IMG/VR virus record: IMGVR_UViG_3300010935_000116
Coordinates: 1-45,084 of that record
Strand: one strand, 5' to 3'
DNA: 45,084 bases
Source of the DNA: a virus
In this document: piece by piece, positions 9,229 to 41,073 of the stretch
Numbering within the stretch: position 1 is the stretch's first letter
Layout: the number at the start of each line of letters is the position of its first letter
Translations under genes and position numbers: made by a program
Notes under the pieces: model-generated
What the model was told of the DNA's origin: nothing
Database searches by the model: none
Seen by the model: the letters and a program-made list of their open reading frames with translations, nothing else

Positions 9229-9792
9229 TTAACAATATTTTTCTATTCGCATCGAACCGTTAAACCTTAAGCCAGCAAACGGGTGTATTAAATACTGCTT
9301 ATCTACTTCCTTGGTGCTGTACCCTTGGTAAATCTTATTAAAATCTTCCGTTACTGCGGTACACTCTACACGTGCGCCAAGTATGCTAAGCCCTGCAAAG
9401 TAATTAAGCACGTCCTGCTTTATCATTTCAAGGTTACGCCTTTCATCAGCAGCCAGCACCTTGTTTACGTTAAGCCATAGCACCAAACCGAAATCAGCTT
9501 TAATAATTTGCAGCTGCCTGCCCTGGGTTTCAATACCGTAATCTGCCACGTCCCACCAAGTAAAGTTCCCAAAGCGTTCATCGGGTAGCATACTGGCGTA
9601 CTCCTTACCCTTGCCCGTGTATATGGCTGGGTACTTTATTACACGCTTCTTATCATCAAGCCTGCTAAGCTTTTGGGATTTGCCGTATAGGTTATTCAGC
9701 CACGGTAATTTCTCTGCCAGCTTTACATTGGCAGCCATTAGTACAGCATCTACCGCTGTGGGTGTAGCTGGGTTTAAAATAGTTGGTATCAT
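9229..9792 (-). CDS. Head-tail joining / tail completion candidate, function unknown
   Basis: 187-aa ORF between the capsid and chaperone genes, start coupled with the upstream ORF (overlap 9789..9792). The call is positional only. Confidence 0.5.
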   Translation of the reverse strand: MIPTILNPATPTAVDAVLMAANVKLAEKLPWLNNLYGKSQKLSRLDDKKRVIKYPAIYTGKGKEYASMLPDERFGNFTWWDVADYGIETQGRQLQIIKADFGLVLWLNVNKVLAADERRNLEMIKQDVLNYFAGLSILGARVECTAVTEDFNKIYQGYSTKEVDKQYLIHPFAGLRFNGSMRIEKYC

Positions 9793-10028
9793 AATTCACT
9801 TATAGTTTTACGGTCAACTTTTAATCTTGCATCTAAATAAGCTGGTATATCATTATCGGGTACTCCCTGCTCTTTTGCTTCTATTACTAACTGCTGGGCT
9901 ATGCCCTTGGTTAAGTTATTTAAGCTTTCTACTATCATAGAATAAGGCACGCCTTGCGTATCAGCAATATCTGCCTGTAATTTTTCCGAGCCTTGCCCGA
10001 AATTTAATTTTATCACTACTGTTTTCAT
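9789..10028 (-). CDS. Hypothetical virion-module protein
   Basis: 79-aa ORF with 4-nt overlaps to both neighbours. Confidence 0.55.
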   Translation of the reverse strand: MKTVVIKLNFGQGSEKLQADIADTQGVPYSMIVESLNNLTKGIAQQLVIEAKEQGVPDNDIPAYLDARLKVDRKTISEL

Positions 10029-10480
10029 ACTTCGTTAAGTTTTGCCAGCATAGCGGGCTTTATATAAAATTCTCTAATTTCCTGCATATTGTCGGGCTTA
10101 AGCCCCAGTATTTCCTTACCGTACTTACCTGTAAGGAATTCAGCCTTTGCATCGCTGCTCATTATTTCAGCAGCTGTATCGCTTATCCTTTCCATATAGC
10201 CACCACTTGCAAAATCGCCCTCGTCGTGTAGCGTTACCCTATCATAAGGCTGCCCTTTGGCTGCTTTGTACATTTCGGTAGCTGGTGCGTAAGGCTTGTA
10301 ATCCATTATCGGCACGTTAAGCCTGTTTACGCCCTCAAGGTATAACTGCTCGCCAAAGTTCATATCCAGCACTATGTTATCATTATCCATAAGCGCATCC
10401 ACAGCCAGCTTATCAGCTTCCGCTTGGAACGCCTTAAGCCTTTTAAGCTTTTCCTCTATTGCTGCCAATCCTTGTAACAT
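10025..10480 (-). CDS. Hypothetical head-tail connector-region protein
   Basis: 151-aa ORF, the first gene after terminator 10570..10600. Confidence 0.55.
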   Translation of the reverse strand: MLQGLAAIEEKLKRLKAFQAEADKLAVDALMDNDNIVLDMNFGEQLYLEGVNRLNVPIMDYKPYAPATEMYKAAKGQPYDRVTLHDEGDFASGGYMERISDTAAEIMSSDAKAEFLTGKYGKEILGLKPDNMQEIREFYIKPAMLAKLNEV

Positions 10481-10569
10481 TTGCCTTATTTGTAACTGCT
10501 TGCTGGTTAATAATTTAGTTACAAGTCTGTACGGGGTAGAGACTAAAATAACTACACTACAAAGCTAAC

Positions 10570-10600
10570 AAAAAAAGCGCACCCTTTACGAGTGCGCTTT
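10570..10600 (-). terminator. Rho-independent terminator
   Basis: Stem AGCGCAC / GTGCGCT (10576..10582 and 10592..10598) with a 9-nt loop. On the minus-strand transcript it is followed by a run of 7 U. It lies 21 nt after the stop of 10621..11121. Confidence 0.75.
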
Positions 10601-10620
10601 TATTATGCTTTTTTAATAGC

Positions 10621-11121
10621 TTATTCCAGCTGTTCCGCCCTATCGGGTTCGGGCATCTTGGTAAGCCTTACCGCTTTAATAGTTTGGTGCTTTTCCATTA
10701 CTGCCTTACAAACCCTATGCCAGCCGTCTGCAAGTATGCCCTCGTCGTCATATATAATCGGGTAATTTAAATCGGCTTCCTGTATTCGCTTATAGTGGTG
10801 CAGCATACTGTTAAGGTTCATATCATCGCCCCACGGTTTACTTGATAAGTTAATACTTGCCAGCGGTACATCAAAAGCCTGTAAGCCATCTGCTGCCTTA
10901 TGCAGCTTTAATGCGCTCCATACGTTTGTTCCATCGCTGTACTCGTTTTCTGCATAATCAAAGTTACTTAACACTACGCTCGTGTCTGCTTTTGCCATAT
11001 CTACGCTGTTAATGGTTAATACTGTTTCTTCCATACTTTGCCCCGTGTCCGCTTCTGCTGCGTTGCACGTAAAACCGATATCTGCTACCAGTAAAATAAA
11101 AAGGGTGCTTTTTAATTTCAT
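10621..11121 (-). CDS. Signal-peptide-bearing ParB/Srx-like domain protein
   Basis: The N-terminus MKLKSTLFILLVADIGFTCNAAEA looks like a signal peptide. The C-terminal YPIIYDDEGILADGWHRVCKAVMEKHQTIKAVRL resembles the ParB-like nuclease-domain core (DGxHR). Confidence 0.5.
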   Translation of the reverse strand: MKLKSTLFILLVADIGFTCNAAEADTGQSMEETVLTINSVDMAKADTSVVLSNFDYAENEYSDGTNVWSALKLHKAADGLQAFDVPLASINLSSKPWGDDMNLNSMLHHYKRIQEADLNYPIIYDDEGILADGWHRVCKAVMEKHQTIKAVRLTKMPEPDRAEQLE

Positions 11122-11144
11122 ATTTCAAATGTACTATAAATTAA

Positions 11145-11432
11145 TTAATTGCTTTTCTTAGTCTGTCGGCTTTTCTTTTGGAACTCATACGCTGCGCCCT
11201 CAATTATGATATAGTCCCGCATATCTGCTGCAAACTGCCGAGCGTTTGCTTCTGTTCTGTCTAAGCTTATAAACGTGTACAACTTACCCCGATAGTCCCC
11301 GTGATGGTTGCTTACACAAAACTCGTAAGCTTCCTGCTGGTAAGTAGCACGCCAGTAAGTGCTTTTCCTACTGGTGTACTTCTTTTCCATTGTGCAGCCC
11401 TGTATAAATTCCTCACGTGTAGCCAGCCCCAT
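11145..11432 (-). CDS. Hypothetical protein
   Basis: 95-aa ORF in the co-directional array. Confidence 0.55.
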   Translation of the reverse strand: MGLATREEFIQGCTMEKKYTSRKSTYWRATYQQEAYEFCVSNHHGDYRGKLYTFISLDRTEANARQFAADMRDYIIIEGAAYEFQKKSRQTKKSN

Positions 11433-11441
11433 ATCGTAACC

Positions 11442-12722
11442 CTATACAGTTCTGTACCTTACGCCGTTCTTTTTACACGGTAAGCATAGCCTGTTCAACC
11501 CCTCAACGTTTAACTGTATTGCGCTTAAAGCCTGTTCATACTTAAACTTAATGCCTGTATTTCTTCCCCGTGTATCGCCGTCAATTTCGTACAGTAGTTT
11601 ATCTACGCTTATGGTGCTTTCGCTTTGGTTTATTCTACTGTTTGGATTGTATGCTAATTCACGCAGTAAGTTAATAGCAACCTGCTTACGTAATACGCTT
11701 TTGAAAAGGTCTGCCTGTTCTATGAATAGGTCTGTATAATCGCAGTATAGTGTTAGGGCAAAGTTGATGCCTTGGTTACTGGTGTATTCGTAACGGTTAT
11801 CTGTTATGTCCCATAGTTCGGGGTCGTCGGCTTGGGGTACTGTAAAGGGGTGGAATTCTATATACGGGCTGTGTAGCTTCCACGTGTTTACCTCTGTCTT
11901 ACTGGCGCAGCTTTCGCACGGTAGTTCGTTCCACGTTTTGTCTTTGCGTATTGCAAGCCCTGGCGTTTCGTTTTCTACGTAAGTAATGTAATAAGCCCCG
12001 CCGCTATCGTTTAGATCACTTACATAAGGCAGTTCCCAGTTAAGGGCAAACCATTGCACGCTGTTAATTTTGCTATAACTTAAAATAAGCTGTTTTAAGG
12101 GCTGTTCTTGGCTGCTATGGTGTAAGTATATGGTTATATCGCCAATCGCTGTAAATTGTAAGCCTATGCGTTCAATTTTGGGCGTTATGCCTTTGCTTCT
12201 ACTGGTAACTATTTCAAAACCTGCACGGCGTTGTCTTTTGGCAATAGTGTCCTGTATTCTACCGATACCATCGAAAAGCGTTTTGTTTTCCAGTATAGGC
12301 TTGGCGGTCTTTACAAGTTCCTTGCCCTCTAAGAAGTTTATAATACAGTCCTGCATTGCTGCCTGTGTCTTTGTTCTTAGCCAGCTGCTAAACGGTTCAA
12401 ATACTTTCCAGTCTGCTGCGCTGTTTACTGGTTTGCTGCCTGTGGTGGCTCTTAAAGCTTGGTAGTTAATACCGTCGTCTTTTATGATGCTGTCCTTGGC
12501 GTATGCCGTTGCTACGTCCCAAGCTGGGTAATTTACAAGCGCATAGTCGGGCATAATGCTCTGTAAGTTCTGCAAGGTAAGTAACGGGTGTTCGTCTTGG
12601 TAATACATACCGCTGGTGCTTTCCAGTAAGTCGGTATCTATTTGCCCAGCGTTCGGGTCGTGGTTCTGTCGCCAGCCTATTAAGCCGCCCCACGCTGTTA
12701 ATACTTTTTCTACGTTGTACAT
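11442..12722 (-). CDS. Structural-module protein with a CBM5/12-like carbohydrate-binding motif
   Basis: 426 aa, the first gene after the capsid terminator. Residues 64-107 (YPAWDVATAYAKDSIIKDDGINYQALRATTGSKPVNSAADWKV) fit the W..Y..G..V..G..Y.A......P.....W pattern. Confidence 0.55.
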   Translation of the reverse strand: MYNVEKVLTAWGGLIGWRQNHDPNAGQIDTDLLESTSGMYYQDEHPLLTLQNLQSIMPDYALVNYPAWDVATAYAKDSIIKDDGINYQALRATTGSKPVNSAADWKVFEPFSSWLRTKTQAAMQDCIINFLEGKELVKTAKPILENKTLFDGIGRIQDTIAKRQRRAGFEIVTSRSKGITPKIERIGLQFTAIGDITIYLHHSSQEQPLKQLILSYSKINSVQWFALNWELPYVSDLNDSGGAYYITYVENETPGLAIRKDKTWNELPCESCASKTEVNTWKLHSPYIEFHPFTVPQADDPELWDITDNRYEYTSNQGINFALTLYCDYTDLFIEQADLFKSVLRKQVAINLLRELAYNPNSRINQSESTISVDKLLYEIDGDTRGRNTGIKFKYEQALSAIQLNVEGLNRLCLPCKKNGVRYRTV

Positions 12723-14857: not shown

Positions 14858-15397
14858 TTACTTATTGGTTTTAGCTTCTTTTTTGGCTTCCGCTTTTGCC
14901 TTATCAACTCCACACAAAGCGTATTCGCCTGTCGGGTCGTGTAATAAATCTACCGAGTAGCCTAAGCCTACACTATTGCGCTCAAAGTTCGCAAATGCTT
15001 TCGGCGAAAATACTTGCAGCTGTGGCTTACTTTGCCTGTCCCCGCTGTTCTTATCAAAGCTTTTAACCTCGATACGTGCGTGGTAGCTGCTTTCAGTCCC
15101 TGGCTCGGGTACGAAAGTATCTTTTGTATGCTTTAATAAATCCGTTTTGCGGGACTTTTCAAGCTTTGCAGCTTTTTCTGCTGCTGCCTTTTCTTCCGCA
15201 GCTTTTTTATCTGCTGCCGCTTTTTCTTCTGCTGCCTTTGCATCGGCTGCCTTTTTTGCTGCTGCTGCTTCTGCATCAGCTGCTGCTTTTTCGTCAGCTG
15301 CTTTTTTCTTTGCCGCTGCTGCTTCGTCTGCCTTAGCTTTCGCCGCTGCCTGCTCCGCCGTCGGCTGGGGCTGGTTTGGTGTATTCTGTTTTGCCAT
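14858..15397 (-). CDS. Ala/Lys/Glu-rich low-complexity protein with a C-terminal globular domain
   Basis: 179 aa. Residues about 15-80 read AAAKAKADEAAAAKKKAADEKAAADAEAAAAKK... The start lies 65 nt inside the 3' end of the portal ORF. Confidence 0.55.
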   Translation of the reverse strand: MAKQNTPNQPQPTAEQAAAKAKADEAAAAKKKAADEKAAADAEAAAAKKAADAKAAEEKAAADKKAAEEKAAAEKAAKLEKSRKTDLLKHTKDTFVPEPGTESSYHARIEVKSFDKNSGDRQSKPQLQVFSPKAFANFERNSVGLGYSVDLLHDPTGEYALCGVDKAKAEAKKEAKTNK

Positions 15398-17090
15398 AAC
15401 TTCTAAAAGTGTTTAAGATTATACTTATTTTTTGATTAAACGGTAAGGCGTTTCCAAACTCTACGATATCGGTATTCTCACGTTCAAATCTTAGTACAAA
15501 TGTAGAAAAATTTAATTTAACTGCGATTAATTCCGTATCGCCAAAACCTGCTTCAAGCATTTCCAGCACTTCCGTCCTTGTTTGGTGGCGGTAAGGCTCT
15601 AAGTGTTTAAGCACCTGCGCACGCTCTAAAGCGTTGGGATTGTTACGGTTTTCCGTTTCAATGATTTGGTCTTGGATAGTGTCTAACTGGTAATCGGTTG
15701 CACCTGCTTCCTTAGCCGCTTTATATTCTGCGGTCAATTCGTTTGCGCTTTGTAAGTACCAGTCGCTGCCGTAAAATATTGTATTGTTTACATACAGTTC
15801 CCCGTACCTTAATCGGCATATAGTATCTTCCACCCAGCCCTGCACACGTTCAAAGTTTTTCTTTACGCTTAGCAGTACGTTTCTGCGGCTTTCAGTATTT
15901 GCCTGTACTTGGTCTTTATTAAAAGCCTTATTCATACTAATATCGCCGCCAAAACCTACGCAGGCGGTGTATATTTTTTCATAAAGCCTTTCGCATTCTT
16001 CTACATTGTAGTCAAGGCTTGCCTTATCTATTGTAGTGATCTGTACTGGGTTTCTTAAATCTGCGCCCTCATTTTCTCGGCTTGGTAATGGCACTTCGAT
16101 AAAGCTACCTACACCAGCCAAACGCTTATCTGCACAAACTGGGCATTTACTTACTTCCCCTGTGCGGGTTACATAGTAATCGCCGTGTGCGTTCTTTATA
16201 AAACCGCTTTCGCAATAATCGCCGTTTTCCTTATTGTCATACGTACAGTCCTGCTCAAAGCCGCTGTAAATTGGATAAGGTGCGTAAAGGTCGAGGTGCT
16301 TTTTACTGGTTTGGAAAAATAAAAGCCAGTCCAATGCTGCCAGCTGGTTGCTTAAAGGGCTTTTCTTAAGTGCTGGCTGGTTATCCATTAAAGGGTCGCC
16401 CCAAAACATAGTCGCAGGGCAGTAGCCTAAATCGTGCGCTGCCTGCGTTAATGGTTCTGCGCTTATTTCGCCTTTATCATCAAGCTGGTAAATACTGTAA
16501 TGCTCGTCGTCAATAACTGCCAGCTGGTTGTTAGGCTGTGGCAGCATTATCCATTCTATTACGCCGCTTGCGTTTGTCTTAAAGTCCTTTATGCCAGTAA
16601 CAGGCACAAAGTAAAAATACGGTGCTGGTCTTTCGCTGGTTTGCTCTGCTGGCAAATCCACCACCATAACGCCGTTAATGTTTGTTTTAAATTGCTTGAA
16701 AGCTTCGTAACGCCAAAAGTGGTAAGCATTAAGTACGCCGCCACGGTAATCGTTCCAATCTTGTAGATATTCGGGGTTTACAAAGTTGTAAACTTCGTAA
16801 GCATCTTTCCCGTCGTAAACCTTTTCCAAGGCGTTAAAAATTTCCTCGGTAAGTTCGTTCGTACTTACAGGAAACTTAAAAAGCTGCAAAAAGACATTGT
16901 ACTTATCTTTCGGCAGCAACTGCTTAACCCATTGCAGAAAATCATTAACCACAGCACGGGCATCTGCTGCGCTCATATTGGTATCAATATGAAAACGCAG
17001 CCTTTGCTCGTGGTATGCAGCTTTATTAATTATTTGCTTGCTTACTGGGCTTTTCAGTATTTCTCTTATTTGACTTCTTAATAAGCCCAT
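15333..17090 (-). CDS. Portal protein (candidate)
   Basis: 585 aa, the largest head-module ORF, upstream of scaffold and capsid. The call rests on size and synteny only. Confidence 0.55.
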   Translation of the reverse strand: MGLLRSQIREILKSPVSKQIINKAAYHEQRLRFHIDTNMSAADARAVVNDFLQWVKQLLPKDKYNVFLQLFKFPVSTNELTEEIFNALEKVYDGKDAYEVYNFVNPEYLQDWNDYRGGVLNAYHFWRYEAFKQFKTNINGVMVVDLPAEQTSERPAPYFYFVPVTGIKDFKTNASGVIEWIMLPQPNNQLAVIDDEHYSIYQLDDKGEISAEPLTQAAHDLGYCPATMFWGDPLMDNQPALKKSPLSNQLAALDWLLFFQTSKKHLDLYAPYPIYSGFEQDCTYDNKENGDYCESGFIKNAHGDYYVTRTGEVSKCPVCADKRLAGVGSFIEVPLPSRENEGADLRNPVQITTIDKASLDYNVEECERLYEKIYTACVGFGGDISMNKAFNKDQVQANTESRRNVLLSVKKNFERVQGWVEDTICRLRYGELYVNNTIFYGSDWYLQSANELTAEYKAAKEAGATDYQLDTIQDQIIETENRNNPNALERAQVLKHLEPYRHQTRTEVLEMLEAGFGDTELIAVKLNFSTFVLRFERENTDIVEFGNALPFNQKISIILNTFRSYGKTEYTKPAPADGGAGSGES

Positions 17091-17247
17091 CAGCTGTTAA
17101 TTTATAGGGTGAATTTTCGGGCAGTTTCCAGCCCCCGTTCTGCGGCATTTTAAGCAGCCGCTCGGCGTGGCTTATTTCTAACGTTTGGTCGCTTATCCGA
17201 CTGTTAGAATTAGTAAGCTGCACGCCTTTGCTTTTGCTTGCTGCCAT
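17026..17247 (-). CDS. Hypothetical small protein
   Basis: 73-aa ORF, start coupled to the stop of the upstream gene at 17247. It overlaps the annotated portal start by 65 nt. Confidence 0.45.
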   Translation of the reverse strand: MAASKSKGVQLTNSNSRISDQTLEISHAERLLKMPQNGGWKLPENSPYKLTADGLIKKSNKRNTEKPSKQANN

Positions 17248-17888
17248 TAAGGCGTTTTCAAGTCGTTAAGAGCATCGAAATCCGCAGGCGTAATGATAAC
17301 CAAGTTATCAGACCAGTTCGGGTATAAGCCGAATTCTACTGCGTTGCTGTCGATGTCTTCCAAACCGCCAAGCTTTTTATCCCCTATAAATAGCCCGTTA
17401 ATTGGAATAGGATAAACCTTTGTAGCTGGTTCAGCACCATCGCCCACAGCGATAATTCTACCGTATTCGTCCACCAAGTAAACGCCTACTTCCTCAACCA
17501 TATAAGTCTTAAGGGCTTTAATTGTTTTCTGTGCTGTACGCAAAAGCATTGCGCTTACAGCTGTCGACTCTCTACCGATTACGATTTCGATACCGCCCAG
17601 CGTTGCATTACCACCGCCGTACTTACGTGCAGCCCCTGGCTCAAATTCGGGTTGAGCGATGAAAGGCGTTTGTACTACCCTTGTATCATCAGCTGCTGCC
17701 AATAAAGGTGTCCAACTTGCCACAGCTGTCGGGTCTGCCGTTGCTACATCAAAAAAGTTTTTTGTTCCGTCTGCTTTTCTAAGTCTTTGAAAAGCTAATT
17801 TTTGTACCTGTCCTACGCTTTCCACGCAGTTTTCGATTGGTACTGCATTAAGTGCTGCGCCACGGGGGCATCCGCTTAGTAATCCCAT
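17247..17888 (-). CDS. Abundant-virion-protein candidate (possible major tail tube protein)
   Basis: 213 aa, the first gene after a terminator plus a TAGATTTG box. No tube-sized gene sits in the canonical slot before the chaperones. Weak inference. Confidence 0.3.
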   Translation of the reverse strand: MGLLSGCPRGAALNAVPIENCVESVGQVQKLAFQRLRKADGTKNFFDVATADPTAVASWTPLLAAADDTRVVQTPFIAQPEFEPGAARKYGGGNATLGGIEIVIGRESTAVSAMLLRTAQKTIKALKTYMVEEVGVYLVDEYGRIIAVGDGAEPATKVYPIPINGLFIGDKKLGGLEDIDSNAVEFGLYPNWSDNLVIITPADFDALNDLKTP

Positions 17889-17978
17889 TTTTTTAAGATT
17901 TTAAAGATTAATATTAGAGGCTTACCCGTCGACCTGTTAAGTATTTTATATATGCAAATCTACAAATTTTTAATTAAC

Positions 17979-18006
17979 AAAAAACCCCGCTTTAAAAAAA
18001 CGGGGT
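17979..18006 (-). terminator. Rho-independent terminator
   Basis: The minus transcript reads ACCCCG-UUUUUUUAAAG-CGGGGU followed by UUUUUG. Confidence 0.65.
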
Positions 18007-18011
18007 ACTTA

Positions 18012-18236
18012 CTATCGCCAGCCCTCTGCTTTTAGGGCTTCTACTTTGCTGGGGTGTACTTGCTTGGTAGTCTTATCAAGCTTAAGCCATACCCAGCCAG
18101 CTGCTGCCCTTTGGCTTTCAACTGCTAAAGCTTTGGGCATTGCTGCCTTTGCTTTTAATCTTTCCTTTTTGTTTACTGCCGTTCCTACACTATTGTCCTT
18201 GCGCTTTGTAGTAGGTTTTTCCTTGCCGTTTTTCAT
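18012..18236 (-). CDS. Small highly basic protein
   Basis: 74 aa, K/R-rich (KEKPTTKRKDNSVGTAVNKKERLKAKAAMPK). It overlaps the upstream ORF by 47 nt. Confidence 0.45.
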   Translation of the reverse strand: MKNGKEKPTTKRKDNSVGTAVNKKERLKAKAAMPKALAVESQRAAAGWVWLKLDKTTKQVHPSKVEALKAEGWR

Positions 18237-18657
18237 AATTTAAGTCTTTTGCCCAGCTTTCCAGCCTGCCCAAAGTTTTGCGCAGCTGTGCCTTTTGGGC
18301 TTTGTTTTTATTGTTCTTAATAGCTTCCTTAAGCTTATTAATACGGTTTACATTTAGCTGGTTTGATAAATTGCTATTCTTAAGCCGTGTAATTTGTCGC
18401 AGCATTTTACTTTTTGCTGCCTGCTTGGTAAGCCCCAAATACATTTCAAAAATATCGGGGTTTTTAACTTTCATAAGCATAAGCTTGGCAGCGTAGTAAT
18501 CACTTAATGCATCATCAAACTTATCGTAAGCATCGTAATAATCTTGTAATGCCGTTTCGCTTGCTGCGCCCTTTGCTTGCTCTGCACGCATTTCCTTTGT
18601 GCCGTGTAACCTATGTACCTGCGCCTTAAGCCTGCGCACTCTTGTTTCTGTAGCCAT
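18190..18657 (-). CDS. Basic coiled-coil-like hypothetical protein
   Basis: 155-aa ORF starting 13 nt after terminator 18670..18697. Confidence 0.55.
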   Translation of the reverse strand: MATETRVRRLKAQVHRLHGTKEMRAEQAKGAASETALQDYYDAYDKFDDALSDYYAAKLMLMKVKNPDIFEMYLGLTKQAAKSKMLRQITRLKNSNLSNQLNVNRINKLKEAIKNNKNKAQKAQLRKTLGRLESWAKDLNYEKRQGKTYYKAQGQ

Positions 18658-18669: not shown

Positions 18670-18697
18670 AAAAAAGCCCCAGCTGTGTGCAGGGGCT
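18670..18697 (-). terminator. Rho-independent terminator
   Basis: The minus transcript reads AGCCCCUGC-ACACA-GCUGGGGCU with one internal mismatch, followed by UUUUU. It lies 12 nt after the ATPase stop. Confidence 0.7.
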
Positions 18698-18708
18698 TAG
18701 TGGTATTT

Positions 18709-20085
18709 TTACGCTTTTACGTTGTATTCCTCAATAATAAGTTCGTCCTGCCCTCGGTGTACTTCCTCGATAAAACCTTGGTAGCCGTTTGCTTTGGCAA
18801 AGCTTACTATCGCATTAAGGCGGGCAGTACCTAAGCTTTCGCCCTGTGCTATCCTAAACACTTTTACAGTCGGGTTTTTAGCTATTATCAATTTAGCAGC
18901 CACTTCCATTTCTTGGCTGGTGCTTACTTCGCCACTTTTAAAAGGCACACCGTTTAAGCTTAAGCCCTCTTCCGTAAAGTCCAGCCCTTTTATTGGCAGT
19001 TCGCTTTCGTCGATAATGGTTTGGCGTTCGTTATGCAGCTTGGTTATATTGGCTTCCATTTTTTCCTTTTCCTTACTGCGCTTTTGCAGCACCGCCTTAT
19101 TTTCATTGTACTGCTTAACCTTAGCCACCTTTTCGTTATGCTCGCCAGCACCTTTAATCTGCTTTTCAATTTCAGCAATATCTGCGGGCTTATTTTCATT
19201 AAGCCAGTTATCAGCATCAGCCTTAAGCGTTTCCATTTCTTTGCGTTCATCAAGTACCGCCTGCTTAATACCAGCCTTTTTATCTTGCAGCAGCTTAAGC
19301 TTATCCTGCTGGCGTTTTATTTCTGCTTCTATTGTTTCAATATCCTGCTGTACCTCATTGCTGCGCTCTGCAATTATTTCAGCTTCATTAAAAGCAGCTA
19401 TTTCCTTGGTACGTTCCTGCTGGCGTTTTTCCACACCGTCCGCCTTTTCTTTTAAGGCAGTAGCATCTGCTTTTTCCTGTGCTAATTTTGTTAAATCCTG
19501 CGCCTTAACGTACTTCTTTATATCATCGGGTACTAAGCCGCTTTTATCAAGAAGATTGCCGTATGCTTTTATATCGGCGTTTACTTCCTTTCGGCTTTCC
19601 TTTATGCGCAGCACTTCGTTATCTATTGCAATAACTCTATCCTGTACCTGCTGCGGTAGCAAGCTTTTTACAATTTCCACCTGCTTACGTCTGCCGTCTG
19701 CCGTTTCGCTCCATTTAACAAACTCGTGCGCATCAAAGTCCTGGTACTTAAATATGCTTTGCAGGGCTGTTAAGCTATTGCTTTTTAAACCTGTGTCTTT
19801 TTTACCTACCGTTATCGTTCCCCTTGGGTTCTTTTCAGTAAAGCGTAATTCCACTTCGTAAGCATTGTCGCCCTCGCCTACGGTCATTTTTGCAAAGCCT
19901 TTTTCTTCGCCTTTTTTTAGTAGGTTATCGGTGCGCTGCCCAGTTAGTAAAGTTCCTATCGCATTAATAAGCGTGCTTTTGCCTATTTCGTTTTCCCCAG
20001 TTACAAGGTAAACGCCGCCCGAAAACTCGCCTTTGTAGTTTTCAATAGTTTTAAAATTCTGTAATTCAATTTCAGTAACGTGCAT
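18709..20085 (-). CDS. Rad50/SbcC-like (SMC-fold) ATPase
   Basis: The N-terminal LQNFKTIE...YLVTGENEIGKSTLINAI carries a Walker A motif, followed by about 250 aa of coiled coil. The C-terminal GEVSTSQEMEVAAKL...VKVFRIAQGESLG looks like degenerate signature and Walker B motifs. I start it at ATG 20085, just after the upstream stop, rather than at 20127. Confidence 0.7.
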   Translation of the reverse strand: MHVTEIELQNFKTIENYKGEFSGGVYLVTGENEIGKSTLINAIGTLLTGQRTDNLLKKGEEKGFAKMTVGEGDNAYEVELRFTEKNPRGTITVGKKDTGLKSNSLTALQSIFKYQDFDAHEFVKWSETADGRRKQVEIVKSLLPQQVQDRVIAIDNEVLRIKESRKEVNADIKAYGNLLDKSGLVPDDIKKYVKAQDLTKLAQEKADATALKEKADGVEKRQQERTKEIAAFNEAEIIAERSNEVQQDIETIEAEIKRQQDKLKLLQDKKAGIKQAVLDERKEMETLKADADNWLNENKPADIAEIEKQIKGAGEHNEKVAKVKQYNENKAVLQKRSKEKEKMEANITKLHNERQTIIDESELPIKGLDFTEEGLSLNGVPFKSGEVSTSQEMEVAAKLIIAKNPTVKVFRIAQGESLGTARLNAIVSFAKANGYQGFIEEVHRGQDELIIEEYNVKA

Positions 20086-20089
20086 AATA

Positions 20090-20464
20090 TTATTTTTTAG
20101 TGGTTTCGCAGCTTTGTGTATCTGCATTAAAATTTAGTCCTTTTTTCGCTCGCTTGTTTACAGCTTCATCTGTCGTACCGTAGTTAAGCATCCACGTGTT
20201 TCTTCCGTCGTGATCTAAAGGCAAATGCTGTATAAGATTTTCAGCAGCTTTTACCCTTGTAAGCCCGCTTTGTATTTCTGCTGCGCTTAGCTTTATTGCA
20301 GTAGCTTTTTCAAGCTGTTCGGTTTTAGCTTTTTCCTGCGTGTACCATTTCCAGTTCTGTGCCGCAGATGCTTCTGCTGCTGCCAGCTTTTCCTTTTTTT
20401 CTGCCAGTTCAATAGTTAAGTTTACTATGGCTTCTTTTAAATATTTCTGTTCTTGCTCTGTCAT
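20090..20464 (-). CDS. Coiled-coil hypothetical protein
   Basis: 124-aa ORF between the DUF932-like gene and the ATPase. Confidence 0.55.
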   Translation of the reverse strand: MTEQEQKYLKEAIVNLTIELAEKKEKLAAAEASAAQNWKWYTQEKAKTEQLEKATAIKLSAAEIQSGLTRVKAAENLIQHLPLDHDGRNTWMLNYGTTDEAVNKRAKKGLNFNADTQSCETTKK

Positions 20465-20475
20465 TTGTAAAGTAT

Positions 20476-20501
20476 AAAAGGGGCAGCTGGTTTGCTGCCC
20501 C
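20476..20501 (-). terminator. Hairpin with a short U-run (weak terminator or attenuator)
   Basis: GGGGCAGC-AAACCA-GCUGCCCC followed by UUUUAU on the minus transcript, 11 nt after the stop at 20512. Confidence 0.5.
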
Positions 20502-20511
20502 GTGGTTAATA

Positions 20512-21597
20512 TTATAAGCTAATTAATTGCCCAGCCAATTCGTTAAGTTCCTGTCTGCGGCGTTCGCCTATTTCATTACTTACGCTGGTAATGGCTTGGC
20601 TTAATTTCCAGCGTGTAGGCTTACCAGTAATGCCCTGCGCTTCATCGCTATTCATAAGGCGTTTTTCTACCTGTTCCACTTCGCTCTTAAGCATTCCCAT
20701 ACGTGGCAGCTTTTTAATTTCAGTATCTAAATCAATAAGTTCGCCGCTGGCTGCTTTAATAGCTGCCGCACTTTCCTTAATGCGCTCAACGCTTAACACG
20801 TTTTTCATAATGTCGCCCACAGCCGAAGCCATAGCGGCAGTATCAAGCCTGTACGTATTATCACTAAAACTTACATTATCGGGCAGCCTTTTACCAAGGT
20901 GTATCTGCTTAAGCTGGCTTTCGCTTACCATACCGTTAAGGCATACGCAATTCATTTGAAACGCTCTTACTTCAAGCGCACCGTCCCCGTAATCGCTGTT
21001 CGCAATACGTGCGCCGAAAACGCTATGCACCAGCCCGTTATTTTCTGTCGGTATTTCAAACACCTGCGGGATGATTGTGCTTATGTAGCTTTTAGTATCT
21101 GTATGCTCGGCTTCGTACAGCTGCGCACCTGCGTTACGGCTTTCCTCTATAAAGCTGGTGTAAATCTTATCGCTGTTAAGCCTGCGGTACTTATCGCTTA
21201 ATACTGCACGGGCTTGGTCGCCTACTGTTCTAATAAGCACACGCTGGCGGGCTATATTGTTTTTGTGGTCGGTAAGCACCTGCTGGGCTAATTTTCTGCC
21301 CCAGTCCGTGCTTGCCAATTCCTTAAGGTAACGCTGCGGCACGCCAAACTTTTCAGCCAGCTGCATAAGTGCGTTATGGTGCAGGCTATACTGCTGGTCG
21401 TTAAAATTCATTTTTATACTGCCATTTGCTTCAAACGTAAGCGGGCTGCTTACATTAAGCGGCAGTACGAAATCGGTAAGCAATCCGTTATCCCTTTCGA
21501 TACGCTCTAAAATTCCAGCGTTTCGTGATTGGCTGCGGTCTAAAAGGTTTGTAACCTTTTCCTGCAAAATTTGCTTTTTACTTGTTTCTGTACTCAT
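20512..21597 (-). CDS. DUF932-like protein
   Basis: 361 aa. ARAVLSDKYRRLNSDKI and ARIANSDYGDGALEVRAFQMNCVCLNGMV resemble the conserved DUF932 blocks (SdrY..., NShDGs...vC.NG). Confidence 0.5.
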   Translation of the reverse strand: MSTETSKKQILQEKVTNLLDRSQSRNAGILERIERDNGLLTDFVLPLNVSSPLTFEANGSIKMNFNDQQYSLHHNALMQLAEKFGVPQRYLKELASTDWGRKLAQQVLTDHKNNIARQRVLIRTVGDQARAVLSDKYRRLNSDKIYTSFIEESRNAGAQLYEAEHTDTKSYISTIIPQVFEIPTENNGLVHSVFGARIANSDYGDGALEVRAFQMNCVCLNGMVSESQLKQIHLGKRLPDNVSFSDNTYRLDTAAMASAVGDIMKNVLSVERIKESAAAIKAASGELIDLDTEIKKLPRMGMLKSEVEQVEKRLMNSDEAQGITGKPTRWKLSQAITSVSNEIGERRRQELNELAGQLISL

Positions 21598-21639
21598 AAC
21601 TGCTCTCGGTATTATGCCCCATCGGGGCGGGTTAAAATT

Positions 21640-21867
21640 CTATTTTATTAATCTTCCATTAAGCGGGAAAAGTTCGGTAGTAACTACCTGCCCCGCTTTT
21701 ATCTTTTTGCCGTTTTTAAATACTACTGCTTCGGTAAGTGCTTCGGTTTTGCGCCCGTGGTAGCCAAATATATCACGGTCTGCGCTTTCCAGCCTTACGC
21801 TGCCTTTGTACTTGCCGTCAACTAAGTAATCAACGGAGTAGCCTACTGTTTTGAATTTCGTAGCCAT
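21640..21867 (-). CDS. Hypothetical small protein
   Basis: 75-aa ORF, start coupled at 21867. Confidence 0.5.
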   Translation of the reverse strand: MATKFKTVGYSVDYLVDGKYKGSVRLESADRDIFGYHGRKTEALTEAVVFKNGKKIKAGQVVTTELFPLNGRLIK

Positions 21868-22109
21868 TACAGTAAAGTATTAAGTATTACCCTTTCCGTA
21901 GCAAACTCGCCAGCACCCTCGTAACCTTGGGTCTGATGATAATTGTTTACGTTAAAAAGCTGGTCGCTGGTTATTACGCAGCCCTCTTTTTTTGCTTGCA
22001 GCTGGCATATATTAATTACTTCATCTGCGCTATCTACTGCACCAATAATATCCCTGCTTTTAAAAGAGTGCTGGTTATCTGTTTTGTAAACTAAAAATAT
22101 CGCTTCCAT
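21867..22109 (-). CDS. Hypothetical small protein
   Basis: 80-aa ORF in a tight array. Confidence 0.5.
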   Translation of the reverse strand: MEAIFLVYKTDNQHSFKSRDIIGAVDSADEVINICQLQAKKEGCVITSDQLFNVNNYHQTQGYEGAGEFATERVILNTLL

Positions 22110-22110
22110 A

Positions 22111-22296
22111 TTAGTAAAGTTCTATATTGTTGTTTTCAAATAATTCCATACAGTCGTTCCATTGCTCGTCGTCCGTAAATATAAATATTGTACTGCCGTC
22201 GTTTTCAAAAGAAAAGCCTGCATCATTTAGTAATTCGTGTGCTGCTTTTGCATCACGTACACTTACTTCTATCGGGTTTAAATTTGTTGCTACCAT
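22111..22296 (-). CDS. Small strongly acidic protein, first gene after promoter repeat A
   Basis: 61 aa, strongly acidic by eye (D/E far outnumber K/R). It is preceded by the conserved CGAGAGC leader. Confidence 0.55.
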   Translation of the reverse strand: MVATNLNPIEVSVRDAKAAHELLNDAGFSFENDGSTIFIFTDDEQWNDCMELFENNNIELY

Positions 22297-22375
22297 TTTG
22301 CTCTCGGTTTTAATTATGGTGCTAAATTAAACTTTTTCTTTAATTGTCAAAACTTTCAAGAGTTAAAATTTTATT
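22297..22375 (-). promoter_or_regulatory. Promoter/operator-like repeat, copy A
   Basis: The minus strand reads TTTTGACAATTAAAGAAAAAGTTTAATTTAGC...AAAACCGAGAGCAAAATG. It has TTG(ACA), 18 nt, then TAATTTAG, plus the inverted repeat AATTAAA-N7-TTTAATT. Copies B and C are near-identical. Confidence 0.6.
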
Positions 22376-23905
22376 TTAATTTGCTCGGCGCACACCTTTC
22401 TTTTTAGGTCTGCCAAAATATTCGCCACAGGCATACCCTAATAAATCCACATATTCATCGTGCGAAGCTACTGGGTAACTTCCTATCTGCCCTATAAAGG
22501 TTTCGTTCCAGCCGCCTTTAATCAAGTACACACGCCCAGCTTCTACCCGTGGGCTTAATTCTGAAAGCCTTGCATCCTTGCCGTCCGTTACCAGCGACCC
22601 CTTTATTAGTATTGCGCTTAAGTCTGTTACTTCCTTAAGCATCTGCTCTAAACTATGCCCCGAAGCTTTTGGCTCAATATGTACACGGCTGCGGGACGTT
22701 GTACCCTGTATATCGCAATACCTTGGCACTTCTTTTAAAAGTTCGGGCATTTCTAAGTAATCGCTTTTTGCGTTCTTTATATACAGCCTATTGCGTTTTC
22801 TATCAAATCCGCAAACCATTAACCCAGTAGGGTCATTAACTGTTTTCTTAGTGTAAGCACCATCTACCCATAAATCCCATACAAGCCCGTCGGGTACATC
22901 GTAGGCATCCACATACTGCCACCATTCGTCTTTCACTTTTCCGCCGCCTTTTGGCGTTGGGTCTTGGTCGTACTGCCCTGCAAAGTCATAAACTCCCAGC
23001 AGCGTAGCCTGTTCCGATAATATCTTTTCGTTTAACCTGTTTGCATCCAGTAAACCATTTACGTAGTGCTTTCGTAGTTCGGGCGGTCTTACGTCCCCTG
23101 TGCTGCGTGCTGGTAGTTTTATATGCCTAATATTATCGGATATGCTTAACATATAGCCCGTCGGGTCTTCCTCGTGCAGCCGCTGCATTATCCCGATGGT
23201 GGGTGTAACTTCCTTATCCTTTTTACGGGTAGGCAGCACCTTACTTACGTGCCTGTTCGCTTTCTTACGTACCTGCTCGCTGTTTGCTTTTTCTACATCA
23301 ATTAAATCATCCCACAGTATAAGGTGGGCGTGCTTTCCAATAATCGCACCGCCTACAGAAGTAAAGAACCTTACGCCCCCGAAGTTATTACGCCAGTCCT
23401 TTTCGTTGTCTTTGGTAAAGGTTAAGTACTTGCCAAATTTTTGATAAATAGCAGGCTGAAAATATTTGTTCCAGCGTTCGCTTTTTATAACGTCCTTACT
23501 TTTCAAAGACTGGTCAACGCTTAAGTCGTTACTGTGCGTACTGGTTATAATTACAAAGTGCGGGGCGTGTACCCAAATCCAGCAGCCAAGCATTTGCGAT
23601 ACTATTGTGGATTTTGAAAGCCCTGGCGGTATATTAATAATAATATCGTTATCCTTTGGCTCTTTACGCATAGCCCTTTCGGCTACTTTTTGCAATTCAT
23701 CGCACAGGTATTTTATATGCCAGTTTAATTCCAGTTCGTTGTCTTGGTTTATTATGTCCCAAAATTCAACAAAGAACTCAAAAAAGCTGGCTTTGCATTC
23801 CGATGCCCTTATAGCGTATAGCTTTTCAAGTTCACGGGCTGCGCTTTCCAGCTGCTGCTTTTTTTTTAATATAAGTTTTTCATCATTCATCCGTGCTGCT
23901 TGCAT
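22376..23905 (-). CDS. terL: Terminase large subunit
   Basis: Walker A-like PPGLSKST, Walker B-like HLILWDDLID and the MQRLHEEDPTGY block, with a C-terminal nuclease-sized domain. It follows the small subunit. An alternative ATG lies at 23890. Confidence 0.85.
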   Translation of the reverse strand: MQAARMNDEKLILKKKQQLESAARELEKLYAIRASECKASFFEFFVEFWDIINQDNELELNWHIKYLCDELQKVAERAMRKEPKDNDIIINIPPGLSKSTIVSQMLGCWIWVHAPHFVIITSTHSNDLSVDQSLKSKDVIKSERWNKYFQPAIYQKFGKYLTFTKDNEKDWRNNFGGVRFFTSVGGAIIGKHAHLILWDDLIDVEKANSEQVRKKANRHVSKVLPTRKKDKEVTPTIGIMQRLHEEDPTGYMLSISDNIRHIKLPARSTGDVRPPELRKHYVNGLLDANRLNEKILSEQATLLGVYDFAGQYDQDPTPKGGGKVKDEWWQYVDAYDVPDGLVWDLWVDGAYTKKTVNDPTGLMVCGFDRKRNRLYIKNAKSDYLEMPELLKEVPRYCDIQGTTSRSRVHIEPKASGHSLEQMLKEVTDLSAILIKGSLVTDGKDARLSELSPRVEAGRVYLIKGGWNETFIGQIGSYPVASHDEYVDLLGYACGEYFGRPKKKGVRRAN

Positions 23906-30346: not shown

Positions 30347-30568
30347 TTATTTAGTTTTGTTCTTATCAAACGGCTGATAAAAACCTTGTTGATATAGCTG
30401 AACCGCCCAGCCTTTTGCTTCAAATAATTTCTTTGCTTTTAGTGCTTCCTCGTAAACCATATCTTTCTGCTTTTCGGGCTGCCCTTTTTTGCGTGCCACT
30501 ATTGTAATGGTTACGCCTGCCAGTATTTGCGCCGTAGTAGGCTGCTTACTATTCTTCCTCGCTGCCAC
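30347..30568 (-). CDS. Hypothetical small protein
   Basis: 73-aa ORF that abuts the next start. Confidence 0.5.
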   Translation of the reverse strand: MAARKNSKQPTTAQILAGVTITIVARKKGQPEKQKDMVYEEALKAKKLFEAKGWAVQLYQQGFYQPFDKNKTK

Positions 30569-32390: not shown

Positions 32391-32442
32391 TTTGCTCTCG
32401 GTTTGATAGGGGCTAAGTTAAACATTTTTTTTAATTGTCCTA
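32391..32442 (-). promoter_or_regulatory. Promoter/operator-like repeat, degenerate copy D
   Basis: The minus strand reads GGACAATTAAAAAAAATGTTTAACTTAGCCCCTATCAAACGAGAGCAAAATG. The layout matches copies A-C but the upstream TTG is missing. Confidence 0.4.
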
Positions 32443-38877: not shown

Positions 38878-38960
38878 CGCTCTCGGTTTTAATTATACCG
38901 CTAAATTAAACTTTTTCTTTAATTAACAAAACTTTCTTCTGTTAAAGATTTATTTTAAAT
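38878..38960 (-). promoter_or_regulatory. Promoter/operator-like repeat, copy B
   Basis: The minus strand reads AAGTTTTGTTAATTAAAGAAAAAGTTTAATTTAGCGGTATAATTAAAACCGAGAGCGATG. Confidence 0.6.
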
Positions 38961-38990
38961 AACAAAAGCCCCTACAAGTGCAGGGGCTTT
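38961..38990 (-). terminator. Rho-independent terminator
   Basis: The minus transcript reads AGCCCCU-GCACUUGU-AGGGGCU followed by UUUGUUAUUU. Confidence 0.65.
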
Positions 38991-39061
38991 CTATCGCAGA
39001 TATACCGAGAGCGTTCGGAAATATTGGAGTGAGACAAATATAGTATTTAAACTTAATTAAG

Positions 39062-40867: not shown

Positions 40868-40960
40868 TTTTCGCTCTCGGTTACATTATTAATATACGGC
40901 TAAATTAAACTTTTTCTTTAATTGTCAAAACTTTTGCGAGTTAAAATTTATCTTTAATTG
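40868..40960 (-). promoter_or_regulatory. Promoter/operator-like repeat, copy C
   Basis: The minus strand reads AAAGTTTTGACAATTAAAGAAAAAGTTTAATTTAGCCGTATATTAATAATGTAACCGAGAGCGAAAAATG. It follows the lysis-module terminator. Confidence 0.6.
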
Positions 40961-41027
40961 TTATTTTTTTACTTTCTGCGATTTAAGGGCATTTCTTTTA
41001 ATTGACTATACTTTTATTATTAAGCAT

Positions 41028-41050
41028 AAAAAAAGCCACCATAGGCAGCT
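41028..41050 (-). terminator. Rho-independent terminator ending the late/lysis operon
   Basis: The minus transcript reads AGCUGCC-UAU-GGUGGCU followed by U7. The stem includes two G-U pairs, so it folds only in this orientation. Confidence 0.65.
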
Positions 41051-41073
41051 TATTTTAATTATTAGGGTATTTG

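Follow-up and report, generated by a model that had tools for sequence, protein, structure and literature searches.

In T4-like myoviruses, promoter early stem-loop (PeSL) cassettes unite an early promoter, repeated in the genome and AT-rich in its upstream part, with a stem-loop and a ribosome site; they border ORFans in hyperplastic regions, and breakpoints between close relatives fall at them (Arbiol et al. 2010, PMC2839356; Comeau et al. 2014, PMC4122927). Here we describe an arrangement of similar appearance in a 45,084-nucleotide (nt) stretch of viral DNA, IMG/VR record IMGVR_UViG_3300010935_000116 (the whole of which we refer to as the window), in which an island of ∼4.5 kb separates the gene for the large terminase subunit (TerL) from the virion operon and carries, among other genes, those for an ATPase of the SMC/RecF/Rad50 class and for a protein with the predicted fold of the DUF932 superfamily. 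The island can also be compared with the morons of lambdoid and other temperate phages, reportedly described by Juhala et al. in 2000. We consider it probable (roughly 70%) that the block represents an accessory-gene island, hyperplastic and specific to the lineage, between two transcription units, with mosaic cargo and with portable promoter/leader repeats acting as exchange patches.

A perfect overlap of 239 nt joins both ends of the window (positions 1-239 equal 44846-45084), and we therefore regard it as a circularly assembled complete genome of ∼44.8 kb. All of its credible genes lie on the minus strand. The window has 91.5% nucleotide identity to Croceibacter phage P2559S (NC_018276), a siphovirus whose host is the marine flavobacterium Croceibacter atlanticus. 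The virion genes (MP2, portal, major capsid protein and others) are common, at 35-65% amino acid identity, to a large Bacteroidota siphovirus family, among whose members are Bacteroides phages B40-8 and B124-14, Parabacteroides phage PDS1, Alistipes phage AS73P1, Elizabethkingia phage TCUEAP2 and Croceibacter phage P2559Y. Within it, we compared a marine clade of five members, namely the window, P2559S, L018, L102 and L017. L102 is from the 42,468-bp ENA contig ERZ6863577:c_000003719770.

The island extends over 22375-17984, from the TerL stop codon (22376) to a terminator-like hairpin (18006-17984), and contains eight open reading frames (ORFs) in four hairpin-separated sub-units (Table 1). 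The initial annotation had drawn a 3.7-kb unit at 18670-22375; all of its elements were found on the minus strand where it had placed them, including its six ORFs (three for small proteins and one each for the DUF932-like protein, a coiled-coil protein and the ATPase), but the real block is longer and runs on beyond 18670 through two ORFs for proteins of 155 and 74 amino acids (aa; 18012-18657) to the third hairpin. Comparison with relatives identified this block as an insertion. In PDS1, TCUEAP2 and B124-14, TerL is followed after a gap of ∼90-125 nt by MP2 and then by the portal gene, and in P2559Y one small reverse-strand ORF lies between TerL and MP2. Similarly, the distance from TerS to MP2 is ∼2.6 kb in the IMG/VR loci that span both genes (L050, L074, L077 and L086) versus 6.6 kb in the window. 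The block had been thought to split terminase from a normally adjacent portal gene and to be inserted into the late region. The insertion stands, but the family order is TerL, MP2, a small ORF and portal, and the late operon is intact, with the island at the junction between units. Since it lies exactly between the TerL stop codon and a conserved candidate late promoter/leader, it splits no operon.

The Bacteroidetes promoter consensus is TTTG at -33 and TAnnTTTG at -7. On the right flank of the island, the 130 nt upstream of MP2 contain a box reading TAGATTTG, which would be a perfect -7 box of this type, and a leader, and this segment is a candidate for both the late promoter and a regulatory leader of the virion operon. 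The box and the leader are conserved throughout the five marine genomes, invariably with a hairpin and U-tract in front, and a related GGGCAAAGGG leader stands directly behind TerL in PDS1 and TCUEAP2. The virion operon thus has a conserved start of its own, and the island ends exactly there. The leader, which is possibly structured, reads CAGGTCGACGGGTAAGCCT in the window and GGGCAAAGGG..CCC in PDS1 and TCUEAP2 (L008, L018, L102, L017, L010 and L011 were compared).

One gene of the island occupies a different place elsewhere in the family. In PDS1, TCUEAP2 and AS73P1, a homologue of the ATPase (46-47% identical; 45-53% across relatives) lies between the genes for a RuvC-like resolvase and a NinB-like protein. 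A profile scan of IMG/VR for this ATPase yielded 479 stretches confirmed by tblastn, and gene order was read in the best 80 loci. The order exonuclease-p304-RuvC-ATPase-NinB-SSB-TerS was found in 79 of them, the sole exception being the P2559S record, in which the ATPase gene follows TerL. The nearest outgroups, L023 and L024 (51-53% identity), are among those with this order, and the Flavobacteriia phage TCUEAP2 agrees with it. In the window, the RuvC-NinB slot (33386-31448) holds two small ORFs, copy B of a promoter/leader repeat and two further ORFs of 112 and 54 aa, and no ATPase gene. By gene order, the ATPase has thus moved from the replication/recombination module to the island behind TerL. 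The neighbors in the ancestral slot are genes for a PD-(D/E)XK exonuclease, Gp3-like, initiator, RuvC-like, NinB-like, Toprim and DnaQ-like exonuclease proteins and SSB, and because of this recombination-set neighborhood the ATPase probably acts in phage recombination or recombination-dependent replication. The 112-aa gene behind promoter copy B was considered as the counterpart of the 112-aa gene behind the ATPase of TCUEAP2, and the two showed no similarity.

The longest ORF for this protein is 18709-20127, and its start is M15 of that frame, the start shared by every homologue. Like RecF, RecN, Rad50 (SbcC) and SMC proteins, it has an N-lobe with a normal Walker A motif (GENEIGKST), a long antiparallel coiled-coil insertion (∼210 residues, with helices across residues 145-360) and a C-terminal head lobe with a signature-like motif (STSQEM). 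The family profile matched the heads of RecF, Rad50 and RecN over the N-terminal ∼100 residues only, and in Foldseek searches the AlphaFold2 (AF2) model (predicted local distance difference test [pLDDT] 75) matched SMC, cohesin, Rad50, RecF, RecN and JetC heads with E values of 1e-11 to 1e-8. In this model, residues 414-417 fall below 50, so that the Walker B region is of low confidence. Unlike the canonical enzymes, the protein reads AQGE in place of the hhhhDE Walker B (region VFRIAQGESLG). Across the family, the motif F-R-I-A-x-G-E-S-L-G is invariant, with no Asp before the Glu and with Gly for the D-loop Asp (S-L-G), and the family alignment contains no invariant H-loop His. As these deviations are invariant, they are a trait of the family rather than signs of decay. 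ATP binding with slow or no hydrolysis may be suggested by these motifs. Residues 388-446 hold the noncanonical catalytic core in the whole family. A CxxC zinc hook is ruled out by the lack of any cysteine in the protein, and no Mre11/SbcD-type metallophosphatase was found in the island or among the scanned replication-module genes, the phage exonuclease being of the PD-(D/E)XK type. The earlier designation as Rad50/SbcC-like is therefore apt for the Walker A head and the coiled coil, but not for the zinc hook, a canonical Walker B or an Mre11/SbcD partner. With the curated NCBIfam equivalogs, all scores were far below cut-off.

PADLOC models of PtuA, GajA, LmuB and JetC matched the N-terminal 50-280 residues of the ATPase (E values of 1e-9 to 1e-6), and JetC was among the many SMC heads found by Foldseek. 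These matches could be taken to indicate a phage-borne defense or superinfection-exclusion system, with an SMC-like ATPase (compare LmuB of Lamassu, PtuA of Septu, GajA of Gabija and JetC of Wadjet) and the DUF932-like protein as effector. Such a system is very improbable, given that the matches span the generic P-loop head only, that the ATPase and DUF932-like genes occur independently of each other and that the home of the ATPase family is the replication module of lytic-looking phages. In addition, PADLOC gave no match for the seven neighboring island proteins, and no HNH, Toprim, LmuA or JetABD effector partner was found among them.

The content of the island is mosaic. All five marine islands open with the shared promoter/leader and close with a terminator and the late promoter, but their constant frame is limited to the promoter, the 75- and 155-aa genes (the latter usually accompanied by the 74-aa gene) and the terminator (Table 1). 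The 61-aa ORF is missing from P2559S, L018 and L017. The DUF932-like gene is missing from L017 and L102, and L102 lacks the ATPase as well, despite being close to the window in TerL (90% identical) and the major capsid protein (93%). In L102, the slot of the DUF932-like gene is taken by a gene for a 289-aa protein that matches phrog_19458 ("primase"); the idea that it might be a diverged DUF932 protein was discarded (hhalign probability, 0.1). Homologues of the 75-aa protein are 85% (P2559S), 81% (L018), 65% (L102) and 57% (L017) identical, and those of the 124-aa protein are 72% (P2559S), 57% (L018) and 42% (L102) identical, with none in L017. The 155-aa protein has homologues with 39-95% identity in all five marine relatives and 12 relatives among 1.84 billion representatives. 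The 74-aa gene is present in P2559S, L102 and L017, and its overlap with the 155-aa gene is kept there.

Replacements on the left side of the island end at the repeat. Nucleotide homology of the window breaks off at 22298 (P2559S), 22294 (L018) and 22293 (L017), which are the last leader bases before the first ATG. Homology to P2559S restarts at 21935, inside the 80-aa ORF, and the right-hand breakpoints are not at repeats. Relative to L017, the promoter is 87% conserved, and L017 coding DNA is ∼70% identical. The promoter/leader element of copy A follows TerL in P2559S, L018, L017 and L102 as well. Compared with P2559S, whose island genes gp02-gp08 occupy the same place, are 72-95% identical and are all annotated as hypothetical, the window differs in its promoter-proximal segment, which consists of the 61-aa and 80-aa ORFs instead of the 77-aa gp02.

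The element at which these replacements end had been described as a repeat at the head of the unit, and it does belong to a real family, a 43-mer of copy A being expected 0 times by chance. Copy A consists of a -33 box TTTG (22351-22348), an 18-nt spacer, a -7 box TAATTTAG (22329-22322) and a leader AACCGAGAGCAAA that reaches the ATG at 22296. The 80-nt repeat recurs at 38879-38958 (86% identity to copy A) and 40878-40957 (76%), and its 31-nt core is also found at 32409-32439 (87%). Altogether, four copies share a core of 31-80 nt at 76-90% identity, plus a leader ACCGAGAGC before the ATG. A degenerate fifth copy inside the island has an exact match to the leader motif (21602-21610) and contains a weak hairpin, GCCCC-GAT-GGGGC (21628-21616; free energy [dG], -9.4 kcal/mol; z score, -1.35), with no U-tract. 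We take the repeat to be a Bacteroidetes-type promoter, its predicted -7 box fitting the consensus at 7 of 8 positions. A scan with the sigma-70 consensus missed the repeat and gave no more matches than in shuffled sequence. With the strict Bacteroidetes pattern TTTG-N16-21-TANNTTTG, only 2 matches were obtained versus 3 expected, because the box in the repeat reads TAATTTAG.

We also observed that a leader motif, A(A/C)CGAGAGC, precedes the ATG of the first gene in several units by 2-4 nt. Exact minus-strand matches are located at 21602-21610, 22300-22308, 32394-32402, 38879-38887 and 40873-40881, and matches with one mismatch include 8956-8964 and 33388-33396. With up to one mismatch allowed, 12 matches were found versus 4.2 expected, a count reached in none of 100 shuffles. 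The motif also stands ahead of the ATPase gene in gut and Elizabethkingia relatives (L029 and L011), where a GC-rich hairpin CCGGGGGAAACCCCGG comes before it. In phages whose hosts largely do without Shine-Dalgarno sequences, the motif may be a signal for the initiation of translation or for RNA processing.

In several respects the repeat resembles PeSLs. It is a repeated, predicted host-type promoter whose upstream part is rich in AT and includes the stop codon of the gene before it, and its 3' end is formed by a conserved translation-start leader. Copy A stands ahead of ORFans in the most variable region, where no library contains homologues of the first genes; the repeat is also where replacements between close relatives end; and a terminator would shield the downstream late virion genes. 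The differences are that the carrier is a Bacteroidota siphovirus, that the promoter is of the Bacteroidetes -33/-7 type rather than the sigma-70 -35/-10 type, that there are 4-5 copies per genome rather than ∼50 and that a core recombination gene was carried into the region. Moreover, the stem-loop terminators associated with the repeat are separate from it, upstream (copies C and D) or downstream, and not interleaved with the promoter boxes, and copy A has none. With morons the island shares the position of extra genes between two genes that are adjacent in relatives, a predicted promoter and terminators of its own and a site beside the virion block. In contrast to morons, it shows no compositional difference from the genome, comprises eight genes in four sub-units rather than one gene and lies on the same strand as the late genes; signs of lysogeny or of prophage expression were neither looked for nor seen.

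The two hairpins proposed as punctuation of the unit are both strong, with a U-tract behind each. The hairpin at 20501-20480 has 8 bp, 7 of them GC pairs, followed by TTTTATAC (dG, -18.4 kcal/mol; z score, -4.88), and none of 200 shuffles folded as well. The hairpin behind the ATPase gene (18697-18670) resembles the one at 38959-38989 ahead of promoter copy C (repeat family D7). At the end of the island, a hairpin with a U-tract is present in P2559S, L018, L102 and L017 as well. According to our reading of the scan tables, the island holds 3 of the 6 strong intergenic terminator-like hairpins on the minus strand of the genome. A Rfam scan of the whole window gave no matches. Of the repeats, copy C has a hairpin immediately before it, and copy D has one at a distance of 75 nt on its upstream side.

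The proposal that the island uses the same promoter type as the early units is borne out insofar as three units in the early/replication half also begin with the repeat. However, there is no strong terminator between promoter copy B (32409) and the TerL stop codon, so that TerS and TerL appear to belong to a unit driven by the repeat promoter, and the type is not strictly "early." The description of the island as an early or accessory module accordingly fits its variable content in close relatives, its DNA-metabolism cargo and the early-region location of DUF932 homologues, but not a strictly early promoter type.

Taken together, these features suggest the following scheme for the island as an accessory-gene hotspot. 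The upstream unit would end with TerS and TerL, and the downstream unit would be the virion operon, read from the late promoter before MP2. Transcription of the island would start at copy A, possibly reinforced by read-through from the TerL unit; the internal hairpins would grade expression of the sub-units, and the last hairpin would shield the late operon from premature transcription. The repeats would serve as near-identical patches for homologous recombination, both between co-infecting relatives and between sites within one genome. The cargo (the ATPase, the DUF932-superfamily protein and several small ORFans) would be of an early or DNA-metabolism kind, the old slot of the ATPase now being occupied by copy B, and the ATPase may function in phage recombination or concatemer processing together with the PD-(D/E)XK exonuclease and the RuvC-like, NinB-like and SSB proteins.

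Several observations weigh against this interpretation. Conservation in the same place is not universal in the phage family, yet some version of the island is present in 5 of 5 members of the marine clade and the 75- and 155-aa genes are always kept, so part of it may be functionally required there. Purifying selection on the promoter, with the flanks replaced by other means, can give the same breakpoints. The count of 79 in 80 loci overstates the number of independent lineages, because a single gut phage group (sample 3300045988) predominates among the loci. The ATPase ORF follows the 124-aa ORF by 4 nt and has no leader of its own, so the repeat does not directly flank the relocated gene. 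Since no stem-loop lies upstream of copy A, transcription probably reads through from the TerL unit, and the island may thus lack autonomy. Its GC content (0.42-0.45 at 18-22 kb versus 0.35-0.46 genome-wide) is like that of the rest of the genome and thus gives no compositional sign of recent foreign origin. Finally, promoter strength, timing and termination are all predicted from sequence.

Retention of the 75- and 155-aa genes in the marine clade would also be expected if the island were a required DNA-processing module, in which the ATPase, possibly together with the 124-, 155- and 74-aa proteins, readies or resolves concatemers and is expressed in coupling with packaging. The near-universal occurrence of the ATPase in the phage family, among recombination genes, fits such a function, as do its new site immediately behind TerS and TerL, from which no terminator separates it, and the very basic nature of the 155- and 74-aa proteins (pI, ∼10), which suits nucleic acid binding. 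We nevertheless regard this as quite improbable. The L102 island has no ATPase, and no ATPase cluster at ≥54% identity lists a contig of the same length as that of L102; P2559Y shares the virion module yet lacks the ATPase altogether; and the Walker B, D-loop and H-loop are noncanonical. In 79 loci, moreover, the ATPase has no link to terminase and lies ∼9-10 kb upstream of TerS.

Apart from the ATPase and the DUF932-like protein, the six island proteins gave no informative matches in family searches. Family and PDB sequence searches with the 80-aa and 75-aa proteins and a PDB sequence search with the 74-aa protein returned no match. The 155-aa protein was considered as an ArpU/RinA-type late activator on the basis of weak DUF722 and HTH_63 matches; this assignment was not supported, as the protein has only those 12 relatives, with no consistent Pfam family across them, and no PDB sequence relative was found. 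The overlap of the 155- and 74-aa ORFs (18190-18236), which are in different frames, measures 47 nt in the window, 44 nt in P2559S, 38 nt in L017 and 44 nt in L102, and its retention suggests translational coupling or possibly a programmed frameshift.

Turnover is fastest in the slot next to the promoter: the 61-aa ORF is missing from P2559S, and the 80-aa protein is 45% identical to its counterpart there, compared with 85-95% for the neighbors. The 61-aa protein is also acidic (pI, 4.05). Both features would fit an arsenal for anti-defense or host takeover, in which early synthesis of the DUF932-like protein and of the small proteins encoded next to the promoter would neutralize host defenses or take over the host, an arms race being the cause of the variation. 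This idea overlaps with that of an accessory-gene hotspot and concerns what the cargo does. DUF932-family genes near early-operon starts (phages HTVC112P and Roos) and the DUF932-like gene in a moron-like, opposite-strand cassette of an unrelated phage family (∼60 of 80 loci) point the same way, as does a preprint reporting that, after exposure to phage, a DUF932 gene on an integrated plasmid was under selection (10.1101/2025.06.20.660599). However, a high turnover and an acidic pI are weak and nonspecific indicators, and the only cargo whose kind can be inferred is of the DNA-metabolism type (the ATPase here and the phrog "primase" in L102). The DUF932-like gene of L025 lies beside helix-turn-helix (HTH) and exonuclease genes in the replication module, and no island protein matched known anti-defense families in family searches, the PADLOC matches of the ATPase being to the generic N-terminal P-loop. 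An anti-defense role for the cargo is therefore unlikely in our view.

The DUF932 assignment of the 361-aa protein rests on its predicted fold. Its Pfam DUF932 (PF06067) score is 15.9 bits, below the cut-off of 23, and only 3 of its 64 family members reach an E value of <0.01 with that profile. The AF2 model (pLDDT, 92.7; predicted template modeling score [pTM], 0.88) matched viral DUF932/TIGR03299 proteins in BFVD with Foldseek E values of 1e-13 to 1e-20 and query template modeling scores (TMq) of 0.66-0.80 for the three clearest. Fold comparison thus led to SMC-type heads for the ATPase and to viral DUF932 models for the 361-aa protein, but for the latter there was no PDB fold at E < 0.001, nor any match in a PDB sequence-profile search. 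The protein resembles DUF932/TIGR03299 members of integrative and conjugative elements (ICEs), plasmids and phages in this fold and in its carriage by mobile elements in early or autonomous units. It differs in length (361 aa versus 227 Pfam profile positions), in an additional N-terminal helix and C-terminal helical bundle and in sequence similarity below the threshold. Its family has invariant Asp, His, Cys and Asn residues (D42, D202, C219, N221, H233 and D262). Literature searches found no functional study of DUF932, TIGR03299 or DUF945; with no function assigned to the family, nothing about mechanism can be transferred.

An unrelated siphovirus family from gut samples, which has a portal of the SPP1 type and a Phage_cap_E capsid protein, commonly carries homologues of this protein (41-46% identity); some of its contigs reach up to 192 kb and are probably prophages. 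In ∼60 of 80 IMG/VR loci of that family, the gene lies in an opposite-strand cassette between portal/MuF-like and scaffold/capsid genes. More distant relatives lie near early-operon starts (Pelagibacter phage HTVC112P and Faecalibacterium phage Roos) or in the replication region (Arthrobacter phage Kitkat), and the L025 copy next to HTH and exonuclease genes is 47% identical. Judged by these contexts, the DUF932-like gene appears to be a mobile, self-contained unit that occurs in early regions and notably often inside packaging/head blocks. In the SPP1-portal family (L013-L016 and ∼60 of L103-L182), it heads the cassette, accompanied by an ∼80-aa ORF, DUF7659 and small ORFs. A 60%-identical gene was observed in L012, a 76.7-kb Logan contig (SRR7132271), between PRTRC_E/Prok_Ub genes on one side and Prok-E2_D/ThiF-like genes on the other (6036-12238); this cluster is a ubiquitin-like conjugation set beside a DnaB-type helicase on a larger phage-like contig. 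A functional pair of DUF932-like protein and ATPase was rejected, each gene being mostly found without the other (L017, L102, gut relatives and Alistipes-type phages). PDS1 gp24 (382 aa), which lies behind the ATPase, showed no similarity to the DUF932-like protein and was dismissed as its counterpart.

A more far-reaching version combines these elements: the island would be a toolbox for counter-defense and establishment, the DUF932-superfamily protein a new enzyme acting on host defense or on incoming or replicating DNA, and the promoter/leader repeats the counterpart of PeSLs in Bacteroidota phages, by which even core genes, the recombination ATPase among them, are carried from one module to another. 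As a whole, we think this rather unlikely.

Table 1. Features of the island, its flanks and the related repeats, with coordinates in the window, and gene orders of the five marine islands (numbers are protein lengths in aa)
Feature	Coordinates	Strand	Remarks
Promoter/leader repeat copy A	22300..22379	-	AT-rich upstream part overlaps TerL stop; repeat families D5 and D8
Repeat copy B	32394..32439	-	Between RuvC-like gene (32847-33386) and NinB-like gene (31448-31894); repeat families, synteny
Repeat copy C	38879..38991	-	Terminator hairpin 38991-38964 in front
Repeat copy D	40873..41051 (repeat 40878-40957)	-	Hairpin 41051-41033 in front, at end of lysis genes
Degenerate fifth repeat copy	21598..21640	-	GAATTTTAAC; weak hairpin instead of promoter core; leader ACCGAGAGCA; ATG at 21597
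TerL (large terminase subunit)	22376..23905	-	Left flank, last gene of upstream unit; phrog_38, E 3.3e-77; Terminase_6C
61-aa acidic ORF, pI 4.05	22111..22296	-	Variable slot after promoter; no family match
80-aa ORF	21867..22109	-	Variable slot; 45% identical to P2559S gp02, flanking genes 85-95%
75-aa basic ORF	21640..21867	-	Island frame gene; homologues in all five marine relatives
DUF932-superfamily protein (predicted fold), 361 aa	20512..21597	-	Variable cargo; phrog_1362, E 1.5e-93
Hairpin after DUF932-like gene	20480..20501	-	GGGGCAGC-AAACCA-GCUGCCCC then UUUUAUAC; intrinsic-terminator-like
124-aa helical (coiled-coil-like) ORF	20090..20464	-	Weak phrog_6163 match
SMC/RecF/Rad50-class ABC ATPase, 458 aa	18709..20085	-	AAA_23 and AAA_29 above cut-off; phrog_1499, E 1.3e-76
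Hairpin after ATPase gene	18670..18697	-	AGCCCC...GGGGCU then UUUUUU; dG -16.2 kcal/mol, z -2.93
155-aa basic helical ORF, pI ∼10	18190..18657	-	Frame gene; phrog_6539, E 1.9e-40
74-aa basic ORF, pI ∼10	18012..18236	-	phrog_29145, E 8.8e-38; overlaps 155-aa ORF by 47 nt
Island-closing hairpin	17984..18006	-	10 bp then UUUUUUG; dG -13.5 kcal/mol, z -3.92
Candidate late promoter and conserved 5' leader	17889..17962	-	-7 box TAGATTTG at 17962-17955; right flank
213-aa virion protein, B40-8 MP2 homologue	17247..17888	-	First late-operon gene; phrog_8193, E 3.1e-78
Portal, B40-8 MP3 homologue	15333..17090	-	phrog_7376, E 1.2e-227
Island order, window			61, 80, 75, DUF932, 124, ATPase, 155, 74
Island order, P2559S			77, 75, DUF932, 124, ATPase, 154, 74
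Island order, L018			69, 76, DUF932, 123, ATPase, 141
Island order, L102			83, 62, 76, 289 (phrog "primase"), 123, 154, 74; neither DUF932-like gene nor ATPase
Island order, L017			74, 29, 140, 77, ATPase, 70, 85, 72, 156, 77; no DUF932-like gene, no 124-aa gene

Variation was also apparent in the genes around the island. The window TerL is 94% identical to P2559S gp01 and 44% identical to the TerL of P2559Y, and tblastn against PDS1 and TCUEAP2 found no match to it (E ≤ 1e-3), although TerS, MP2 and portal are shared. These comparisons indicate that the terminase gene itself has been swapped within the phage family. TerL of the window is 30% identical to that of the unrelated phage L013; TerL is annotated as two ORFs in PDS1 and as 2.5 kb in B124-14. 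The portal is 40-48% identical to portals in 75 Bacteroidota phage records. Downstream of it, a 179-aa protein (14858-15397) contains a long Ala/Lys/Glu-rich tract derived from imperfect 15/18-nt tandem repeats (families D1, D2, D4 and D6), and its PDS1 counterpart is annotated as TolA-like. In the replication module, the P2559S DNA methyltransferase gp52 (L008 36449-36946), located between the RuvC-like gene and small ORFs, is missing from the window (32835-32846), and the 298-aa Toprim gene of the window (30549-31445; 61-65% identical to PDS1 and TCUEAP2) is missing from P2559S. A tail gene with an SGNH-hydrolase domain, homologous to P2559S gp25, is cut by the window ends, and a 705-aa part of it is listed (42935-45052).

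The genes of the island were already known from GenBank as hypothetical proteins of P2559S, and accessory islands beside terminase are familiar; the island is a clear but unsurprising case of phage genome shuffling. What is new is that it holds a relocated core recombination ATPase. Also new are its bounding by a repeated, predicted Bacteroidetes-type promoter/leader that appears to behave like a PeSL and its position directly against a candidate late promoter that is conserved across the family.

The rearrangement is clean and datable for a siphovirus, in that a near-universal recombination gene was lifted from the replication module to a site behind terminase. The content of this post-TerL hotspot changes even between genomes that are ∼90% identical, with breakpoints at the repeated promoter/leader. 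The PeSL idea, described so far only for T4-like myoviruses, would thereby be extended to Bacteroidota siphoviruses with a different promoter grammar. In addition, a predicted start of the late operon (-7 box and leader) is defined for a large family that includes the gut phages B40-8, B124-14 and PDS1. The main upside lies in the uncharacterized DUF932 superfamily, whose proteins are widespread on phages, plasmids and ICEs and for whose function P2559S on Croceibacter atlanticus HTCC2559 is a tractable system, and in PeSL-like shuffling, which is possibly general.

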